Sequence record: PZ295659.1
Strand: one strand, 5' to 3'
Length of the DNA: 64,000 nucleotides
Source: a phage
The translations under genes and the position numbers were made by a program. Every line of letters begins with the position of its first letter. Positions within the stretch are counted from its first letter, which is position 1. The notes under the pieces are model-generated. The model was not told where the DNA came from. It saw only the letters and a list, made by a program, of their open reading frames with translations, and did no database searches. Shown one piece after another: positions 320 to 56,366 of this stretch.

Positions 320-2052
320 TGGAAATGATTAGCAGTAGCCTTAATTGGTTCGTGGGCGTTGTCGAGGACAGAATGGACCCATTAAAACAAGGGCGAGTTC
401 GAGTTCGAGTCGTTGGTCTTCATCCGGCGCAGAGAACACAAGGCGATGTACAAGGTATTCCTACAGAAAAACTTCCATGGATGACTGTTATTCAACCTAT
501 TACGTCTGCATCAATGTCAGGTATTGGTGGTTCTGTTACAGGTCCTGTTGAAGGAACTCGAGTATATGGTCATTTCTTAGACAAATGGAAAACAAACGGG
601 ATTGTACTTGGTACATATGGCGGAATAGTACGTGAAAAGCCTAATAGACTTGAAGGTTTTTCAGACCCGACAGGCCAGTATCCGCGACGTTTAGGTAATG
701 ATACGAACGTATTAAACCAAGGTGGTGAAGCTGGTTATTATTCGAACTCTAACGTAATTCAAGATAACAACTTGGATTACGGTATAAACCCAGACGATAC
801 AGATTTAGCAAATATTCCAGAAGATGATGACCCTAATTTTACAATAACAGAAATGTTACGTCGTGATGAAGGTCTTCGTGATAAAGTGTATTGGGACCAT
901 CTCGGATATCCTACAGTAGGTATTGGACACCTTATCGTAATGGAAAAGACCCGAGATATGTCTCGAATTAATAAATTGTTATCTGATCAAGTAGGGCGTG
1001 AAGTAACAGGAAATCCCGGGACTATTACATTAGAAGAAGCAACAGCGTTATTTGAGAAGGACCTTGCTAAGATGCAGAAAGACATTCGTTCTAATTCTAA
1101 AGTAGGTCCTGTTTATGCTAAAATGAACAGATCTCGCCAAATGGCATTAGAAAACATGTGCTTCCAGATGGGCGTTGGTGGTGTAGCAAAATTCAATACT
1201 ATGCTTAAAGCAATGGCCACAGGCGATTGGAAAACCGCATACAAATCCGGACGCGATTCGTTATGGTTCCAACAGACTAAAGGGCGTGCTTCACGTGTAA
1301 CAACAATTATTTTAACTGGTAACATGGAATCATATGGCGTTCCTGTTAAAACACCACCTTCACCAGGAGTTGGTGCCAATTTAGTTACTAGAAATACCGA
1401 TCCAGAAGACCCGGCTGGTCCTCCTGTTCCGTTAGATTCACGTATCCTTTTTAAAGAACCTGAATCAAGTTATCGTGGTGAGTATCCATACGTTCATGCT
1501 ATGGAAACAGAAAGCGGTCATATCCAAGAATTTGACGATACTCCAGGTAATGAACGTTATCGCTTAGTTCATCCAACAGGGTCATATGAGGAAGTTTCTC
1601 CGTCTGGGCGTCGTACTCGTAAAACTGTAGAAGACCTTTTTGACATCACTAACGGCGATGGGAACTTCTTGATTTCCGGTGATAAACTTGTTAACGTTGG
1701 TGCTAATGAAATATATTATAACATGGCAGACCGCCTCCATCAAATAGACGGCAATGACACAATCTTTATTCGTGGTAACCAAGCTAAAACTGTTGAAGGC
1801 GATGGAACTCTTTACGTTAAGGGTAATATCAAAATAGTTGTTGACGGAAATGCAGATATTCTTGTTAAAGGTGATGCTAAAACTCAGGTCGAAGGGAATC
1901 ATGATTACACCGTCAACGGAAACGTTAAATGGACTGTTAATGGTAATGTTGATATGACTGTTGCCGGGGATTGGGCAGAGACAATGTCTACAATGAGCTC
2001 AATAGCTTCAGGACAATACACTGTTGACGGATCTCGTATTGATATTGGGTAA
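319..2052 (+). CDS. 5: baseplate central spike gp5 with tail lysozyme domain
   Basis: 577 aa; N-terminal OB-like region, T4-lysozyme-like segment (DEGLRDKVYWDHLGYPTVGIGHL), C-terminal beta-helix VxGxxxxx repeats; T4 gp5 is about the same length. Confidence 0.95.
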   Translation: MEMISSSLNWFVGVVEDRMDPLKQGRVRVRVVGLHPAQRTQGDVQGIPTEKLPWMTVIQPITSASMSGIGGSVTGPVEGTRVYGHFLDKWKTNGIVLGTYGGIVREKPNRLEGFSDPTGQYPRRLGNDTNVLNQGGEAGYYSNSNVIQDNNLDYGINPDDTDLANIPEDDDPNFTITEMLRRDEGLRDKVYWDHLGYPTVGIGHLIVMEKTRDMSRINKLLSDQVGREVTGNPGTITLEEATALFEKDLAKMQKDIRSNSKVGPVYAKMNRSRQMALENMCFQMGVGGVAKFNTMLKAMATGDWKTAYKSGRDSLWFQQTKGRASRVTTIILTGNMESYGVPVKTPPSPGVGANLVTRNTDPEDPAGPPVPLDSRILFKEPESSYRGEYPYVHAMETESGHIQEFDDTPGNERYRLVHPTGSYEEVSPSGRRTRKTVEDLFDITNGDGNFLISGDKLVNVGANEIYYNMADRLHQIDGNDTIFIRGNQAKTVEGDGTLYVKGNIKIVVDGNADILVKGDAKTQVEGNHDYTVNGNVKWTVNGNVDMTVAGDWAETMSTMSSIASGQYTVDGSRIDIG

Positions 2053-2875: not shown

Positions 2876-4846
2876 ATGGCAAACACTCCTGTAAATTATC
2901 AGTTAGTCAGAACGGCGAATGCTATTCCCGAAATTTTTATCGGGGGCACATTTGCCGAAATCAAACAGAATATTATCGAATGGCTCAACGGACAGAATGA
3001 ATTTCTTGATTATGATTTTGAAGGTTCGCGTTTAAACGTATTGTGTGACCTTTTAGCATATAATACTCTTTATATCCAACAGTTCAGTAATAGTGCAGTG
3101 TATGAAAGTTTTATGCGTACTGCAAACTTGCGTAGTTCTGTTGTACAAGCGGCTCAAGATAACGGATATTTGCCTGCATCTAAATCAGCAGCACAAACAG
3201 AAATTATGCTCACATGTACGGATGCATTAAATAGAAACTATATCACCATTCCACGTGGCACTCGTTTCCTGGCGTATGCTAAAGGTACTTCTGTAAATCC
3301 ATATAACTTTGTCTCTACCGAAGACGTCATTGTAGTTAAAGATAAAAATAATCAATATTTCCCACGTCTTCGATTAGCTCAAGGACGTATTGTTCGCACT
3401 GAATTAACATTTGATAAATTAAAACCTATCATTATTCGCGATAAGAACATCGATCGTAATTTGGTTAAATTGTATGTTGACGGAGCAGAATGGATCAACT
3501 GGACTCGCAAATCGATGGTTCATGCCGGTTCTACTTCAACCATTTATTATATGCGAGAAACTGTTGACGGGAACACTGAATTTTATTTTGGTGAAGGTGA
3601 AATCTCTATTAACACATCAGAAGGTGCTTTAACATCCAACTACATTGGTGGCCTTAAACCTGTCCAGGGTTCTAAAATCGTAATTGAATATATTTCTACT
3701 AATGGCGCTGAAGCAAATGGTGCAGTAGGATTCTCTTATGCTGATACATTAGCTAATATCACAGTTATTGGAATTAATGAAAACCCAAGTAATAACCCTG
3801 ACTTCGTTGGTGCGGATGGCGGTGGCGACCCTGAAGATATTGAACGTATCCGTGAATTAGGTACAATTAAACGCGAAACTCAACAACGATGTGTGACTGC
3901 AACTGATTACGACACATTCGTCTCTGAACGATTTGGTTCTATTATTCAAGCGGTTCAGACATTTACGGATTCATCTAAGCCTGGGTACGCATTTATTGCT
4001 GCTAAACCTAAGTCTGGGTTATATTTGACTTCAGTCCAACGAGACGATATTAAAAATTATCTTAATGAGTATAACTTAGGGACGATAACTCCTGTTGTTA
4101 TTTCTCCTGATTATTTGTTTATTAAAATGAATATTCGCGTTACGTATGCATTGAACAAACTACAGGAATCTGAACAATGGTTAGAAGGCCAAATTATTAA
4201 TAAAATCGACCGTTATTATATTGAAGACGTGGAAATTTTTAACTCGTCATTCGCAAAATCTAAAATGTTAACATATGTCGATGACGCAGATATTTCTATC
4301 ATTGGTTCGTCTGCGACTATTCAAATGGTTCGCGAGGTACAGAACTTCTACAAAACACCTGAAACAGGTATTAAATACAATAACCAGATTAAAGATAGAA
4401 CATTAGAATCTAACGTGTTTTCATTTGATAGTTTACGCGTTGACCCTGAAACGGAAGCTACTATTAAATACGACGTTCGCATTGTAGGTTCAGATAGAAA
4501 TGACCGCGGCATTGGACAAGTTATTATTGGCCCGTTTGCAGATGGCGACGTTATAGAAAACGCTTATATTCAACCATATACTGGTGACGATTTTAATAAA
4601 CTTCATGTTACGGACGGAAGAAGCAAATATTACTCTATAGGTGAAGTAAATTATCCGGCTGATTCAATTTATTGGAATATAGCTAAAATTGATTTAACTT
4701 CTGATAGGTTTGAAGTTCAAACTATTGAACTCTATTCAGACCCAGCTGATGATGTTATCTTTACTAAAGACGGGTCATTAATTGTATTTGAAAATGACTT
4801 ACGTCCACAATATTTAACCATAGATTTGGAGCCTATTTCACAATGA
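2876..4846 (+). CDS. 6: baseplate wedge protein gp6
   Basis: 656 aa from ATG 2876 preceded by AGGAA; T4 gp6 is about 660 aa; stop overlaps gene 7 start (ATGA). Confidence 0.9.
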   Translation: MANTPVNYQLVRTANAIPEIFIGGTFAEIKQNIIEWLNGQNEFLDYDFEGSRLNVLCDLLAYNTLYIQQFSNSAVYESFMRTANLRSSVVQAAQDNGYLPASKSAAQTEIMLTCTDALNRNYITIPRGTRFLAYAKGTSVNPYNFVSTEDVIVVKDKNNQYFPRLRLAQGRIVRTELTFDKLKPIIIRDKNIDRNLVKLYVDGAEWINWTRKSMVHAGSTSTIYYMRETVDGNTEFYFGEGEISINTSEGALTSNYIGGLKPVQGSKIVIEYISTNGAEANGAVGFSYADTLANITVIGINENPSNNPDFVGADGGGDPEDIERIRELGTIKRETQQRCVTATDYDTFVSERFGSIIQAVQTFTDSSKPGYAFIAAKPKSGLYLTSVQRDDIKNYLNEYNLGTITPVVISPDYLFIKMNIRVTYALNKLQESEQWLEGQIINKIDRYYIEDVEIFNSSFAKSKMLTYVDDADISIIGSSATIQMVREVQNFYKTPETGIKYNNQIKDRTLESNVFSFDSLRVDPETEATIKYDVRIVGSDRNDRGIGQVIIGPFADGDVIENAYIQPYTGDDFNKLHVTDGRSKYYSIGEVNYPADSIYWNIAKIDLTSDRFEVQTIELYSDPADDVIFTKDGSLIVFENDLRPQYLTIDLEPISQ

Positions 4847-7800
4847 CAGTAAAAGCGCCAGCAGTCACGAGTCTCAGATTATCTAAATTGTCCGCAAACC
4901 AAGTTCAAATTCGCTGGGATGAGGTTGGCGCCAATTTCTACTATTTTGTGGAAATAGCTGAGACCAAAACAGCTAATGGGGAAGCAATTCCCCGTAATAG
5001 CTATAGATGGACTAATTTAGGATATACCGCTGATAACAATTTCTTTGAGTCTGGTTTAAATTCATTAACAACATATATGATGCGTGTGGCTACAGCAGCA
5101 GAGGGATTTGAGCAGTCTGATTGGAGATACACCGAAGAGTTTGAAACATTTGAAATAAACGCTTACACATTCCAACATATGATTGAAATGCAATTAGCTA
5201 ACGAGTTTATTTCTGAAAAATTTACAAAAAATAATACCAACTACGTTGATTTTAATAATGACACGATCATGGCAGCACTGATGAGCGAGTCGTTCCAATT
5301 TAGTCCTGCATACACGGATGTGTCATCGATTAGAAATTTTATAATTGGCGAAAATCAGTATCATGAAATCCAGGGGCATATCCAAGATGTATGTAAAGAT
5401 ATAAATCGAGTATATCTAATGGAATCTGAAGGAATTCTTTACCTTTTTGAAAGATTCCAACCTATTGTAAAAGTGTCTAATGATAAAGGCCAAACATGGA
5501 AAGCGGTTAAATTGCTTAATGACCGCGTAGGATATCCACTTTCACGAACCGTATATTACCAATCAGAATATACGACGTATTTGCTCGGCTATGATAAGAT
5601 TTTTTACGGGCGTAAATCATCCGATATTCGTTGGTCTGCTGATGATGTTCGTTTCAGTTCACAAGATGTAACATTTGCTAAAATCGGGGATCGATTAAAT
5701 TTAGGTTTTGATGTAGAGATTTTCGGTACATACGCATCATTACCAGGAAACGTATCACGTATTGCAGAAGCTATTACTTGTAATGATGACTATGTTTATA
5801 TTGCGGCCAGAGATAAAGTTCGCTTCGTTAAAACCAGTAACGCTCCTATTGATTCAGATCCGTTATCTCCGACCTATTCCGAACGATTGTTTGAACCTGA
5901 GACGTTTACAATAACAGGCAACCCTAAAGCAGTTTGTTATAAAATGGATTCTGTTGGTGGAAGAATATTCGCTCTTATTATTGGTGAAGTCGAAAACGTT
6001 AATGACGACCCAAGAACAAAGCCTATTTTGGATTCCGTTGATAAAGGTGTATACGTTTTAGACCATGACGCTGGAACATTTAAAAGAATATTTGGTAATA
6101 CCGAAGAAGAACGCCGTCGTATAGAACCGGCTTTCACCAATATGTCTACTGATGGTGTTGAGCTTTATATCTCTTCTAGTAATTTTAAATTTTTAGAATC
6201 CGATATTGTTGACGACCCAGAAACGCAATCTAAGTATGGACTTTTAGGAGCAGTTAAGTACGAATATCCTAGAGAATGGCTCGCAGATAAACATTACCAT
6301 ATGATGATTTTCGCATCAAACGAAGAAAGTAATTGGGAAACTTTTTCACCAACTCCTATGCAGTATTATGCAGAACCTTTCTTTAGTTATTCTAGAAAAT
6401 CAGGCACACGTTCTTGGATTAATAACTCTGATAGAGCAGTAGTGATTTATTCTGATTTGCTTTACACAAAGGTAGTGGAAAGCCACCCTAGCACTTCACC
6501 TGATCGTAAAGTTCATGAATACTGGAATGATGGTGATTGTAAGATTGTTATGCCGAATATAGAATTCACTGGATTTAAAAAATACGCATCTGGTATGTTG
6601 TTTTATAAATCATCAGGTGAAATAATTTCATATTACGATTTTAGTTATCGTGTTAGAGATAATGTTTCTATAATTTGGAAGCCCACTAACGTATTTTTGA
6701 CCTCCTCATTACAAAACCAAGAAAAAGAAACTTCTTGGGTTCCTGTTGAAGAGACAGGTCTAGCTGACCCGGATTTACGCCCATTACTCACTACAATGAT
6801 GCCAGAGTCTTATCTGTTGGATAATACAAACTTTGAAGCATTTTGTGAAGCGTATATTCAATATCTTTCTGATGGATACGGGACTCATTATAATAACTTA
6901 TTGAATTTGATTAAAAATAAATACCCACGAGAAGAACACGCATGGGAATATCTTTGGTCTGAAATTTATAAACGGAACATTTATTTGAATGCTGAGAAAC
7001 GTGATTTAGTTTCTAGGTTCTTTGAGTCCAGAAGTTACGATTTTTATTCTACTAAAGGAACTGAAGCGTCGTATAAGTTTTTGTTTAAAGTTCTTTATAA
7101 CGAAGACGTTGAAGTGGAAATTGAGTCATCTGCTGGAACAGAGTACGATATCATAATTCAATCTGATTCTATAAGTGAAGATTTGGTTGGACAAACTATA
7201 TACACCGCTACAGGTAGATGTAATGTTACATATTTAGAAAGAAGCTATTCTAAAGGTAAATTACAATGGACTGTGACTATTCATAACCTTTTAGGTAGGC
7301 TTTTAGTCGGTCAAGAAGTAAAAGCCGAAAGACTAGCAGATTTTGAAGGTGAAATAGTTCGCGGTATTAAAGGTAAAGAACTTGCCCAAAACACTATTGA
7401 TTATTTTAATCGTGGTAGAGCTTATTACGTCATGAAAATAAAGTCAAATCTTCCATCCTCTCGTTGGAAATCTGACGTACTACGTTTTGTACATCCGGTA
7501 GGATTTGGATTTATTGCAATAACCTTATTAACAATGTTTATTAATACAGGATTAACGCTTAAACATGTTGAAACTATTATTAATAAATATAAAAATTATA
7601 AGTGGGATTCCGGACTGCCTACGGAATATGCAGACCGCGTCGCTCGTTTAGACCCTCAAGGTAATGTAGAATTCAATCCTGTTACAGGTGAAGTAATTTA
7701 TGATGCCGGTCCTTATGCCGGTATCGAATACCCTTTACCTGCAAATTATAACGAAGAAAATGATAACTCTATTTTCCAAGGACAATTACCGTCTGAACGA

Positions 7801-52014: not shown

Positions 52015-52323
52015 TTACATAAGAAGCAAACTTTCCACCGGAGTACCATCAACCGAAATTACTTTATCAAGGCGGAAAGAACGCCACTGACCTAACTTGG
52101 TGTCGAATGCTCGAACTGATTCACGAGGTTCATAACGAACTTCTGTTGCTGGATTGTTATTTTCATATTTGACTTCAAGTTCATCGCGCGAAGCAAACAT
52201 AGTGCGTACCTCGCCGTTAGCCTTTTCAAATACAACACAATGAACGCCTACAGATAGAATAGTTTTAATACGTTCACGAAGAACCATAGTTTCTTGTTCA
52301 GTTAAAATCATATTATTCACCAC
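52015..52323 (-). CDS. hypothetical protein (102 aa; 31.1/31.2 position)
   Basis: ORF between cd and 31. Confidence 0.6.
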   Translation of the reverse strand: MVNNMILTEQETMVLRERIKTILSVGVHCVVFEKANGEVRTMFASRDELEVKYENNNPATEVRYEPRESVRAFDTKLGQWRSFRLDKVISVDGTPVESLLLM

Positions 52324-52894
52324 AAAAGTTTCGGATTTGTTCCCAATTCAGAGAACGAAGATTATTACGAGAGTACTGAATTACTTCAATACCGGCTTGT
52401 TTTAGAATGTCTGCCCAATTTTCAGGAGATCTGTCATATAATTCTGCGTATACAACCTTTTTAATACCTGACTGCGTAATAGCTTTAGTGCAATCAGGAC
52501 ATGGAGAAAGCGTCGTATATAACGTAGCACCTTCAATAGAATTACCTTTACGAGCTGCAAACAAAATTGCATTCAATTCTGCATGGATTTCATTATTAGC
52601 AGACCATGCACTATGAGCGGCCCGATGTTCTTTAGCCAAAACAAAATTATCTGCCCGTCCAAATGCTGTAGTGCCTTCTTTATGTCCAGCAACGATGACC
52701 GGGCTTGGTTTATTCTTCAACCAACCGTTTTCGGATGCATGTTCGCAACAGTTTGTACCACCTGAAGGAGAGCCATTATAACCTGTAGAAATAATGCGTC
52801 CATCTTTTTCAATGACTGCGCCAACTTTCCATGAACAACATTTTGATTCTTGAGAAATCAGATATGCAATCTGAAGGTATGTGCTAGCTTTCAT
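52313..52894 (-). CDS. cd: dCMP deaminase
   Basis: 193 aa; zinc motifs HAELNA and PCPDC. Confidence 0.93.
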   Translation of the reverse strand: MKASTYLQIAYLISQESKCCSWKVGAVIEKDGRIISTGYNGSPSGGTNCCEHASENGWLKNKPSPVIVAGHKEGTTAFGRADNFVLAKEHRAAHSAWSANNEIHAELNAILFAARKGNSIEGATLYTTLSPCPDCTKAITQSGIKKVVYAELYDRSPENWADILKQAGIEVIQYSRNNLRSLNWEQIRNFCGE

Positions 52895-53886
52895 TATTGA
52901 ACCTTATTAATATAAGTTAACAGCTCTTTAGTTTGTTCCCAACTGATGCACGCATCGGTAATGGAAACGCCATAGGACATATTATCAGAAATTTTTTGAT
53001 TTCCTTCATGTAGGAATGATTCTATCATAATTCCTTTGACCAAATCATTAGCTGCTAAATTTTTACCAATACCAATTTGATTGCTATAATGCCCATCAGC
53101 GTTTGCATGGCTACAGTCAACCATTACATAATGATTCAGACCTACTGCACTTGCTTTGTTAGAAGCTTCTTGAATATCAGAAGAATGATAGTTCGGGCCG
53201 TTGGTCCCGCCACGCAATACGATATGCGTATTCTGATTACCTTCAGCTTCAACAATGCCTATAGTACCATCGACGTCCATACCCATATACCGATGAGGCC
53301 AGGCGGCACTATACATCGCGTCTGTAGCTACTTTAATAGAACCATTGGTTGCGTTCTTGAAGCCTACGCACATCGGTAGACCTGAAGCAATTTCACGATG
53401 TGTCTGACTTTCAGTCGTACGGGCGCCAATAGCAACCCATGAGAAAATACCAGAAAGATACTTAATCGTGAATGGGTCTAATACTTCAGTTGCTAATGGA
53501 AGTCCCATACGTAGAAGTTTACGACACAATGTTCGTGCAACTATAAGACCGTGGTTCATATCAAAACTTCCGTCAAGATATGGATCATTTACAAGACCTT
53601 TCCAACCTACGGTAGTTCGAGGCTTTTCAAAATAAACGCGCATCACTAACAGAACATTAGGAAGACGAGTTTGAAGTTCAGCCAGACGTTTGCCGTATTC
53701 AACAGCAGCAATAGGGTCATGAATTGAACAAGGACCTACAACAATAAGTTTGCGTGGGTCTTCACCGTTCATAATCGAATTAACTTGTTCGCGATGAGAA
53801 GCCACTTGTGATGCGTAAGCTTCCGACAAAGGAATAATCTCAGCCAGTTCTTTTGGAGAAATAAGTTTTCTGACGATAGGTAACAT
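52894..53886 (-). CDS. 3-deoxy-D-arabino-heptulosonate-7-phosphate (DAHP) synthase, class I (AroG/AroF-like)
   Basis: 330 aa with near full-length similarity to bacterial AroG: VVGPCSIHDP, MRVYFEKPRTTVGWKGL, IGARTTESQTHRE, VGFKN, LRGG, SHAN, HEGNQ, SITDACI. Confidence 0.85.
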   Translation of the reverse strand: MLPIVRKLISPKELAEIIPLSEAYASQVASHREQVNSIMNGEDPRKLIVVGPCSIHDPIAAVEYGKRLAELQTRLPNVLLVMRVYFEKPRTTVGWKGLVNDPYLDGSFDMNHGLIVARTLCRKLLRMGLPLATEVLDPFTIKYLSGIFSWVAIGARTTESQTHREIASGLPMCVGFKNATNGSIKVATDAMYSAAWPHRYMGMDVDGTIGIVEAEGNQNTHIVLRGGTNGPNYHSSDIQEASNKASAVGLNHYVMVDCSHANADGHYSNQIGIGKNLAANDLVKGIMIESFLHEGNQKISDNMSYGVSITDACISWEQTKELLTYINKVQ

Positions 53887-54006
53887 AACAATCCTTAGGA
53901 GATATAAACAGATTCTGATTCAACAATACCTTTAACCGGATTAGACAGGCTAAGTTGGTAGTGCTCAGATTTATGACCATTCTCGATAGTAATGAGATAG
54001 CTCTAA

Positions 54007-54243
54007 TTATAGTGTTCCATATACTCGAGTTGCTTCAACAAGACCATCACTGCCTAATTTAAGATTAGTAATTTGGTCACCATCTTTAGGATTAACGATT
54101 ATGAGAAAAGAACGTGGAGATTCTTGAATAACTCGTAATGTTGCATCCTGGAAACGTTCAGACACTTTATTGATGAGTGCTTGAGCGAATTCTTTTACTT
54201 TAATCTGAAATTCGTGTACTGTAATTGGATTTTCACTTAGCAT
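54007..54243 (-). CDS. hypothetical protein (78 aa)
   Basis: ORF with early promoter upstream. Confidence 0.55.
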   Translation of the reverse strand: MLSENPITVHEFQIKVKEFAQALINKVSERFQDATLRVIQESPRSFLIIVNPKDGDQITNLKLGSDGLVEATRVYGTL

Positions 54244-54270: not shown

Positions 54271-54300
54271 ATCATATCACAACTCTACTGTGTTGTAAAC
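54271..54300 (-). promoter_or_regulatory. early promoter with inverted repeat (AGTAGAGTT / AACTCTACT)
   Basis: GTTTAC ... TATGAT. Confidence 0.55.
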
Positions 54301-56066: not shown

Positions 56067-56067
<1 letters not shown>

Positions 56068-56366
56068 TATTTTATTCCTAAGAAAGTTTCAAGAATACGA
56101 ATGTTATGCTCGCGCCGATCTTTGTTAATTTCAGCAACGTTTTTATTAATTGACGTACTTCTAACGTTTGAAGAAATAAATTTAATCATATGGCTTTTGA
56201 GTTGTTGCAAATCTAACCCTTTTTCTTTAGCAGCTTTACGAAGAGCTTTACCTGCTTCATCTAGTGCCTTTGCTGCATCTTTGTCATAATCACCAAGTGA
56301 CATTCCACGGCAGATGTCAATATACTCATCAGACCGTTTGATGTAATTCTCTAGTAATGTTTTCAT
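56067..56366 (-). CDS. hypothetical early protein (99 aa)
   Basis: ORF with consensus early promoter (GTTTAC-N18-TATAAT). Confidence 0.55.

Follow-up and report, generated by a model that had tools for sequence, protein, structure and literature searches.

A DAHP synthase gene between cd.2 and cd in a T4-like Mosigvirus phage, with a rebuilt inhibitor pocket and a recombination scar

DAHP synthase is the first enzyme of aromatic-compound biosynthesis. Among solved structures, the best match by sequence to the phage protein analyzed here is the Tyr-sensitive AroF of E. coli (PDB 6AGM/6AGL), with 354 bits and ~50% identity for 6AGM. The Phe site is formed by the N-terminal extension together with a beta-hairpin (PMC4735112); Q151/Q152 and S180/S181 contact the bound Phe or Tyr, and feedback-resistant AroG variants include P150L and S180F (PMC9529685). 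The engineered feedback-resistant enzymes that we compare with the phage protein are AroG P150L, S180F and D146N, C. glutamicum AroF Q159A, S188F and P155L/I, and N-terminally engineered variants. The phage gene itself is already known: it has long been annotated in T4-like phages, and there is a phage family, PHROG 5045, with copies in Mosigvirus phages of the phapec2 type and in other T4-like phages (PhAPEC2, HX01, ST0, AlbertHofmann, PEi20, F48 and CHI14). Two genome papers mention it in passing (PMC11845039, PMC8022965), and a full-text literature search found no functional study (assay, expression or phage knockout) of any phage DAHP synthase. What the present analysis adds to the existing annotation is a rebuilt inhibitor pocket and a recombination scar.

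The window, that is, the whole stretch of DNA analyzed, comprises 64,000 nucleotides of a T4-like Mosigvirus phage (PZ295659.1). The features of the locus, all of them on the minus strand, are as follows.

54271..54299 (-): promoter-like site of sigma-70/T4-early type (consensus match: gTTTACA, 17 nt, TATGAT, with TG)
54007..54243 (-): resident cd.2, 78 aa, DUF7320, the upstream neighbour (Pfam PF24005, E=1.5e-35)
53895..54002 (-): recombination scar, a divergent and truncated duplicate of the cd.2 3' half (DUF7320) (Pfam match, DNA alignment)
53892..53896 (-): Shine-Dalgarno-like AAGGA, 5 nt before the ATG (sequence)
52898..53991 (-): segment of ~1.09 kb holding the DAHP synthase gene and the cd.2 remnant, absent from RB69 (blastn of the window against RB69)
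52894..53886 (-): DAHP synthase CDS, 330 aa, type I-alpha, AroF-like (ORF, family scores, residue mapping, AlphaFold model)
52892..52896 (-): TAATG stop/start overlap of the DAHP synthase gene and cd (read from the sequence)
52313..52894 (-): cd, dCMP deaminase, 193 aa, directly downstream (Pfam PF00383, E=1.6e-26; annotated as dCMP deaminase in relatives)

The DAHP synthase ORF opens with an ATG at 53886, and its translation contains all eight of the motifs listed in the original prediction (VVGPCSIHDP, MRVYFEKPRTTVGWKGL, IGARTTESQTHRE, VGFKN, LRGG, SHAN, HEGNQ and SITDACI). Its family scores lie far above chance: a Pfam search returns a strong match to PF00793 (E=5.5e-75, 252 bits against a cut-off of 25.5), and the product scores 427.3 bits with the NCBIfam aroFGH equivalog TIGR00034 (cut-off 173.2) and 454.6 bits with PRK12755 (cut-off 343). 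All the listed NCBIfam matches and all 21 listed solved-structure matches by sequence are DAHP synthases, and the PHROG 5045 profile matches the protein end to end (residues 1-330, E=5.2e-182). Residues were mapped by alignment to E. coli AroF/G/H, and no catalytic residue has been lost with respect to these enzymes. The metal ligands (C53, H260, E289 and D311), the KPRT motif (K88-T91) and the PEP/phosphate residues (R83, R156, K177 and R225) are invariant in 25 phage-clade and ~95 bacterial sequences; expressed in AroG numbering, C61, R92, K97, R99, R165, K186, R234, H268, E302 and D326 are kept in 25/25 phage-clade sequences. The AlphaFold model (pLDDT 91.3) compares to AroG and NmeDAH7PS with a TM of 0.95 and an rmsd of 1.6-1.7 A, and the top 50 fold matches listed for it are all DAHP synthases. 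It displays the (beta/alpha)8 barrel with I-alpha decorations, with the strands of the beta6a/6b hairpin predicted at residues 198-203 and 209-214, and predicted N-terminal helices from whose extension the first 8-9 residues are missing.

The identification of this ORF as a class I (type I-alpha) DAHP synthase is thus upheld by PF00793, TIGR00034, catalytic residues and fold alike. Its description as full-length holds for the catalytic barrel, which is complete, but not for the protein, which is 18-26 residues shorter than AroF/G/H: 8-9 residues are missing at the N-terminus, 5 and 3 aa in two short internal stretches, and the tail at the C-terminus. Features common to it and AroF are the (beta/alpha)8 fold, the metal ligands, KPRT, the DCSH motif and Gly at specificity position 211; unlike AroF, it is missing the first 9 residues, both internal stretches and the tail. 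The phage protein is very probably an active DAHP synthase, and it would operate as a metal-dependent type I-alpha enzyme, condensing PEP and erythrose-4-phosphate into DAHP.

Many T4-like coliphages and Klebsiella phages carry this auxiliary metabolic gene, and its presence here is ordinary. It is carried by ~200 phage records, most of them already annotated, and 140 phage records contain a 95-99% identical protein, in most cases under the annotation DAHP synthase. Most sequenced Mosigvirus genomes have it, including phages considered for therapy. The window protein differs in nothing of substance from the PHROG 5045 family, with the same gene order cd.2-DAHPS-cd, and the window gene stands at 7 nucleotide differences (3 synonymous, 4 not) from that of AlbertHofmann. 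At least five other T4-like genera have more divergent copies in the corresponding cd.2-cd slot, and the position between cd.2 and cd (or cd.1) recurs in Kanagawa-, Marfa-, Winkler-, Braga- and Gualtarvirus and in a metagenomic T4-like contig; the location seen in the window is one shared with phage relatives. Linkage to cd is tight in most genera, and in three of them cd.1 or a homing endonuclease gene separates the two. Across genera, DAHP synthase identity tracks that of the adjoining cd gene (76/83, 67/80, 68/70, 60/67 and 63/65%). T4, as the original prediction stated, has only the small ORFs cd.1-cd.5 in its cd-pseT interval and no DAHP synthase gene, and the gene is absent from RB69 as well. 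Because these two phages lack it, the gene is accessory, and not a core gene present in T4 and all its relatives.

A neighbour-joining tree (Kimura distances, 123 sequences, 200 bootstraps) places all phage copies, the window protein among them, in one clade in 200/200 bootstraps, with enterobacterial AroF, E. coli AroF included, as the sister group. This clade is restricted to T4-like phages (Straboviridae) and is ~51-55% identical to any bacterial protein. The GC3 of the gene is 29%, as opposed to 50-57% in E. coli aroF/G/H (50% in aroF), and its RSCU values correlate at 0.88 with those of 37 other long ORFs in the window, the median for those 37 ORFs being 0.86 and the value for E. coli aroF 0.27. 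The codon usage is phage-like, as had been proposed from the sequence, and the accompanying claim that this is no recent host fragment also stands: a recent host origin is rejected on composition, on divergence (51-55% identity to the closest bacterial homologues) and on the monophyly of the phage copies. A single old capture, of an AroF-like gene from enterobacteria, seems to lie behind the clade, whose members have since evolved with phage genomes and been exchanged among them.

At its downstream end, the TAA of the DAHP synthase gene (52896..52894) and the ATG of cd (52894..52892) have one base in common and read as gttcaaTAATGaaagct, which bears out the overlap at 52894 noted in the original prediction. 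An identical TAATG junction is found in RB69, where it joins cd.2 to cd. The overlap suggests that translation of the DAHP synthase gene and of cd is coupled. At the upstream end, AAGGA and the TAA of the cd.2 remnant share bases (TAAGGA), and in PEi20 and F48 cd.2 ends in the same TAAGG stop-plus-SD arrangement just ahead of the DAHP synthase genes. The promoter-like site at 54271..54299 is located between cd.3 and cd.2 and scores 10/12 consensus matches plus the TG, in a region where matches of promoter type are no commoner than in shuffled sequence; from the promoter/terminator scan, which stays at background level here, we used just the one site falling in the T4 early-promoter slot, the same cd.3/cd.2 gap being occupied in T4 by the early promoter Pe133295. 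The scan returned no terminator-like site on the minus strand between the promoter-like site and cd, and the 120-nt spacer, checked by eye, showed no match to a MotA box (TGCTT) or a late promoter (TATAAATA). The promoter-like site is the probable start of a cd.2-DAHPS-cd transcript, and we infer that the DAHP synthase gene is expressed early, probably as part of this unit.

The 120-nt spacer upstream of the gene (53887..54006) is mostly filled by the cd.2 remnant, beside which lies an in-frame TAG (54005..54003). The remnant matches positions 45-76 of the 78 in Pfam DUF7320 (E=2.6e-6, 27.8 bits against a cut-off of 27); a BLASTP comparison with the resident Cd.2 gives no match, and only the profile search detects the relationship. 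Its identity amounts to 18/30 with Cd.2 of Klebsiella phage F48, 18/32 with that of PEi20 and 10/31 with the resident Cd.2, which is itself 95% identical to its RB69 counterpart; the remnant is hence closest to the cd.2 of other phages carrying the DAHP synthase gene. In phage AlbertHofmann this stretch is annotated as a 41-aa ORF upstream of the gene, which in the window is interrupted by a stop codon. In the blastn comparison with RB69, homology blocks stop at window positions 52897 and 53992. For the left junction, a duplication of the cd 5' end was considered, since 11/15 bases after the cd.2 stop match the start of RB69 cd, and this reading was rejected on the Pfam match and the alignments to F48 and PEi20 Cd.2, which identify the spacer as a 3' fragment of cd.2; the short match to cd may represent microhomology at the crossover. 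Since the second cd.2 copy is closest to the cd.2 of phages that carry the DAHP synthase gene, Mosigvirus probably acquired this gene from another T4-like phage, and it would have arrived along with the 3' half of the donor cd.2.

Alignment indicates that the phage copies lack the inhibitor-pocket residues of regulated isozymes (Q151, S180, P150, D155, F209 and the N-terminus). Inhibition by one aromatic amino acid through this pocket is a characteristic of the regulated isozymes, but it does not define the type I-alpha family. Fixed in the phage clade are, in AroG numbering, P150I, Q151K, D155G, S180P and F209Y (in AroF numbering, P151 is replaced by I, Q152 by K, D156 by G and S181 by P), and the substituted positions are known feedback-resistance or inhibitor-contact positions. 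Q151 is present in all ~95 bacterial homologues and S180 in all but one, which has Thr; full-length phage copies have K at 151 (R in one) and P at 180 in all cases. PMC9529685 lists 9 inhibitor-site residues, and of the 12 positions at which the phages have a fixed residue of their own, 4 coincide with these (hypergeometric P=1.2e-4). The phage clade is also without the first 8-9 N-terminal residues, and the D6/D7 region is absent from all copies. Shumilin et al., in 2002, are said to have found D6 and D7 of AroG involved in inhibitor contact. On the other hand, D146, L179, V221, hydrophobic residues at 10 and 13 and Gly at 211, the latter as in Tyr-sensitive isozymes, are retained in the phage clade, and with these residues and the beta6a/6b hairpin the pocket may still bind ligand to some extent. 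Conservation in the rebuilt segment (residues 131-170 of the window protein) is 0.96-1.0 among phages, against 0.77-0.96 among bacteria, a pattern that fits retained pocket function better than simple loss.

The phage changes fall on positions 150, 151 and 180 and on the N-terminal segment, as do those of the engineered variants, a likeness in how the enzyme may work and not of family. Unlike in those variants, the phage residues (I, K and P) occur together and are naturally fixed, and they depart from the residues that have been tried; the pocket substitutions differ as well from the exact mutations tested in E. coli. Given that the pocket is rebuilt and the N-terminus trimmed in every phage copy, insensitivity to aromatic amino acids seems the likeliest behaviour of the enzyme, and as far as sequence can tell the balance tips towards a feedback-insensitive phage DAHP synthase. 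The possible bypass of host feedback inhibition raised in the original prediction thereby gains support at the sequence level.

It is conceivable that the enzyme is instead an ordinary Tyr- or Phe-regulated DAHP synthase of AroF type, which only adds enzyme copies after host transcription shut-off and whose pocket changes are neutral or compensating. The sister-group position of AroF, the Gly at 211 typical of Tyr-sensitive isozymes and the preservation of D146, L179, V221 and the hairpin all speak for such an enzyme. We nonetheless consider it unlikely: Q151 and S180, which contact the main chain of the inhibitor and are invariant or nearly so in ~95 bacterial homologues, have become K and P in phages, P150 and D155 are replaced too, the N-terminus is trimmed, and the clade-specific changes are enriched at inhibitor-site residues defined in the literature (P=1.2e-4). 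Far less plausible still is a protein that is functionally not a DAHP synthase, whether KDO8P synthase-like, repurposed or a host-derived relic without activity. PF00793 takes in KDO8P synthases as well, and one genome paper ties the domain loosely to lipopolysaccharide synthesis (PMC8022965), but the aroFGH equivalog model gives 427 bits, the KPRT motif and all DAHP synthase catalytic and metal residues are retained, and the best structure and sequence matches are all DAHP synthases; a relic is further at odds with conservation across six genera and phage-like codon usage. KDO8P synthase as such is rejected, since the protein has KPRT and every listed NCBIfam, sequence and fold match is a DAHP synthase.

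The conservation of the rebuilt segment invites a further reading, in which the pocket has taken on a new role in regulation or interaction, responding to a different effector or binding a phage partner, such as a nucleotide-synthesis component encoded nearby. Among phage genera whose overall identity is no more than 57-77%, the DPFTIKYL(S/T)GIFSWVAIGAR segment and the GLPM motif hardly vary, the former being more conserved in phages than its counterpart is in bacteria; a Lys takes the place of the inhibitor-contacting Gln, and in most genera the gene is tightly linked to cd. This reading strikes us as decidedly doubtful, for the high conservation could reflect the large dimer interface that the segment partly builds (PMC4735112), and cd.1 or a homing endonuclease gene breaks the linkage to cd in three genera. 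It also seems improbable that the clade represents a natural case of rewired allostery, with the Tyr/Phe pocket of an AroF ancestor converted for another effector or partner under strong purifying selection. Were that true, chorismate/folate supply could be linked through the site to the phage's programme of nucleotide synthesis (cd, td, frd, hydroxymethylase), and the value of the enzyme to the phage would reside in folate or pentose-phosphate economy, not in aromatic amino acids.

The explanation we favour, an active, feedback-insensitive phage DAHP synthase derived from an AroF-like capture and expressed in an early cd.2-DAHPS-cd unit, is held as a whole with slightly better than even confidence. 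Such an enzyme would go on supplying DAHP once the host isozymes are inhibited and their resynthesis has stopped, and would during infection add entry flux into the shikimate/chorismate pathway, from which either aromatic amino acids or folate might be the product that matters to the phage. From the conserved remodelling of the pocket one would expect a type I-alpha DAHP synthase that is naturally insensitive to feedback, and this property, if true, would be of interest to the metabolic engineering of aromatic compounds, where such variants come from mutagenesis. The cd.2 remnant, in turn, provides a worked example of the passage of accessory genes from one T4-like genome to another at conserved gene boundaries.

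The gene on which this analysis centers encodes a DAHP synthase (DAHPS), and its placement at 52894-53886 in the original prediction is confirmed, with the accompanying interpretation supported. The features referred to below are as follows.

52894..53886, minus strand: DAHPS ORF of 330 aa, beginning at the first available start codon past the upstream stop
5 nt ahead of the DAHPS start, minus strand: AAGGA, read from the sequence
53895..54020, minus strand: cd.2 remnant, a small ORF in relatives; fragment of a second cd.2 gene
54299..54271, minus strand: promoter-like site gTTTACA-17-TATGAT with TG, between cd.3 and cd.2, from a consensus scan

All eight predicted hallmark motifs (8/8) are present in the translation of 52894..53886, and the suggested profile search matches the ORF to Pfam PF00793 (DAHP_synth_1) with E=5.5e-75. 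The NCBIfam AroF/G/H equivalog TIGR00034 (427 bits; cut-off 173) and the subfamily model PRK12755 (454 bits; cut-off 343) also match, and among solved structures the top sequence match is the E. coli Tyr-sensitive AroF (6AGM, 354 bits), followed by N. meningitidis DAH7PS and E. coli AroG. An AlphaFold model built with 54 homologues as input (mean pLDDT 91.3) superimposes on AroG and NmeDAH7PS with a TM-score of 0.95 and an rmsd of 1.6-1.7 A. Residue mapping reveals that the type I-alpha catalytic residues are all kept in every phage copy, namely, in AroG numbering, the metal ligands C61, H268, E302 and D326, the K97-P-R-T motif, and R92, R165, K186 and R234. With the catalytic residues retained and the predicted fold intact, the protein is very likely an active DAHP synthase.

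Several lines of evidence argue that this gene is not a host fragment, in agreement with the original prediction, which noted its phage-like codon usage. Its GC3 is 29%, against 50-57% in E. coli aroF/G/H, and its RSCU values correlate at 0.88 with those of 37 further long ORFs in the window (the median of those ORFs is 0.86; aroF scores 0.27). In a search of 5.8 billion clusters the closest bacterial proteins are only 51-55% identical, and phage homologues form a graded series at 98, 77, 67-70 and 57-62% identity. An NJ tree built from 123 sequences places all 25 phage-type members in a single clade (200/200 bootstraps), sister to the enterobacterial AroF group. The database protein at 98% identity (P0001) carries the label '[Escherichia coli]', yet it lies on a 170,875-bp contig, which is therefore a phage genome entered under bacteria. 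The reverse also occurs: a 691-kb Salmonella houtenae contig stands in the phage collection, and its chromosomal DAHPS is listed among 'phage' matches (H37 and H38 in tblastn).

DAHPS is already known as a widely annotated phage auxiliary metabolic gene. The window protein aligns over its full length with the PHROGs profile phrog_5045 (E=5e-182), a family in the category 'moron, auxiliary metabolic gene and host takeover', and tblastn with the protein finds 213 phage records, most of them annotated as phospho-2-dehydro-3-deoxyheptonate aldolase or DAHP synthase: 140 at 95% identity or more (Escherichia and Shigella Mosigviruses), 47 at 60-80% (Klebsiella, Edwardsiella, Enterobacter, Serratia, Erwinia) and 26 below 60% (Proteus, Providencia and others, including a few contaminant or unrelated records). 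Two genome papers name it only as a presumed AMG, in Kanagawavirus KLB31 (PMC11845039) and phiC120 (PMC8022965), and full-text searches found no functional work on a phage DAHP synthase.

The window comes from a Mosigvirus genome, and many 'Mosigvirus phapec2'-type phages match it at 97-98% identity over the 5 kb surrounding the gene, where the order is pseT - cd.4 - ORF227-like - cd.3 - cd.2 - [120-nt spacer] - DAHPS - cd - 31.1 - gp31 - rIII. The predicted overlap with cd, whose identity as dCMP deaminase is confirmed by Pfam, amounts to one base shared by the DAHPS stop and the cd ATG (TAATG, 52896..52892). The promoter-like site, the T4 early promoter Pe133295 in the same cd.3/cd.2 gap, and a scan that found no terminator-like site on the minus strand from 54299..54271 to cd make early co-transcription of cd.2-DAHPS-cd plausible; because the promoter scan overall stands at background level, we only infer it from this candidate promoter. 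Just upstream of pseT, a 99-aa ORF (56067..56366, minus strand) is called a 'putative homing endonuclease' in AlbertHofmann (bas47_0056); its RB69 counterpart (ORF231c) is shorter.

DAHPS occupies the same slot in five further genera, as cd.2-DAHPS-cd in Kanagawavirus PEi20 and Marfavirus F48, as cd.2-DAHPS-cd.1-cd in Winklervirus CHI14 and Bragavirus SdyM_006, and separated from cd by a homing endonuclease gene in Gualtarvirus PSTRCR_121. In Kanagawa-, Marfa-, Winkler-, Braga- and Gualtarvirus its identity to the window protein (76, 67, 68, 60 and 63%) parallels the identity found for cd (83, 80, 70, 67 and 65%). Two additional clade members lie in T4-like contexts, one with the order rnlA-alc-spanins-pseT-x-DAHPS-cd. 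In agreement with the original prediction, T4 has no DAHPS here, carrying only cd.5 - cd.4 - cd.3 - cd.2 - cd.1 before cd, and in RB69, the type Mosigvirus, cd.2 overlaps cd directly. This empty RB69-type junction occurs in 20 records, 11 of them Mosigvirus-level matches (RB69, ECO111 5-P, mar005P1, JK42, JK36, moha), so the gene is accessory but common. Presence seems to vary even inside one named species, since the vB_Eco_mar005P1 records (LR027383-91) have the empty junction and the 'Mosigvirus mar005p1' record OZ035759.1 gives a split match consistent with the insert. The RB69 cd (6743..7252 of its locus, L006) is annotated at 169 aa, against 193 aa in the window (52313..52894) and T4, with a 76-nt unannotated gap ahead of gene 31.1; this could stem from a frameshift, from a sequencing error in the RB69 record or from genuine C-terminal truncation.

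Relative to RB69, the window carries some 1.09 kb of extra DNA (52898..53991). The 'intergenic' 120 nt that separate cd.2 from DAHPS are not spacer: one reading frame yields a match to the Cd.2 family over its C-terminal half (Pfam DUF7320, positions 45-76 of 78; E=2.6e-6, 27.8 bits, cut-off 27). This remnant resembles the Cd.2 of DAHPS carriers (18/30 identities with F48, 18/32 with PEi20) and only 10/31 positions agree with the resident Mosigvirus Cd.2; it closes with TAAGG (stop plus Shine-Dalgarno), which likewise precedes DAHPS in F48 and PEi20. AlbertHofmann has it annotated as a 41-aa hypothetical protein (bas47_0049), and in the window a GAG-to-TAG change (54005..54003) stops this frame after its fifth codon; the small ORF is probably a pseudogene over-annotated in GenBank records. 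The simplest reading of this scar is a cassette in which DAHPS was joined to the 3' half of cd.2 from a donor, another T4-like phage, and which would have entered an RB69-like cd.2/cd junction by recombination. No sequenced phage is this donor, as DAHPS identity beyond Mosigvirus peaks at about 77%. Homing endonucleases could, through co-conversion, be one means by which the DAHPS cassette spreads among T4-like phages. In Providencia phage PSTRCR_121 (L011) the homing endonuclease gene lies at 3990..4556, with a SegD-like one nearby (796..1512). The cd.2-DAHPS gap of Klebsiella phage F48 (L008, ~2958..3000) holds a GC-rich hairpin, GGGCTTCGGCCC, absent from the window and PEi20, which might be a lineage-specific terminator or RNA-processing element.

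In type I-alpha enzymes the N-terminal extension, together with the beta6a/6b hairpin, forms the inhibitor pocket at the interface of the tight dimer (PMC4735112). Inhibitor-site residues, as AroG equivalents, are 147, 151, 155, 179, 180, 209, 211, 212 and 214; the main chain of Phe or Tyr is contacted by Q151/Q152 and S180/S181, feedback-resistant AroG variants include P150L, S180F and D146N, and C. glutamicum AroF with Q159A or S188F loses inhibition by 50 uM Tyr (PMC9529685). Among some 95 bacterial homologues Q151 is invariant, as is S180 save for one Thr. All 25 phage-clade members carry K at 151 (R in one) and P at 180, P150 is replaced by I in all but one, D155 by G and F209 by Y; these proteins also begin 8-9 residues later than AroG, and therefore lack its D6/D7 region. 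Twelve positions are clade-specific, that is, fixed in phages for a residue present in at most 5% of bacterial sequences, and four of them fall on the nine literature-defined inhibitor-site residues (hypergeometric P=1.2e-4), or five on a 14-residue list that adds feedback-resistance positions (P=4e-5). The best explanation for this pattern of substitutions is a DAHPS that has become unresponsive to Tyr and Phe. The pocket may, on the other hand, have kept a role or gained a new one, since phages conserve its rebuilt segment (window residues 131-170, DPFTIKYL(S/T)GIFSWVAIGAR...) more strongly than bacteria do.

A Tyr/Phe-insensitive DAHPS would keep the shikimate entry step going while the host isozymes are inhibited and not renewed. 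Candidates for the relevant chorismate product are the aromatic amino acids and pABA/folate, with an effect on PEP or E4P pools as a further candidate. Folate is linked to phage thymidylate and hydroxymethyl-dCMP synthesis in T4 nucleotide metabolism, and the idea that pABA/folate would serve both draws solely on this general knowledge and on the genomic neighbourhood. Beyond what database annotation already records, the cd.2 remnant documents lateral movement of the DAHPS cassette, and the inhibitor pocket, remodelled alike across the phage clade, provides a testable prediction.
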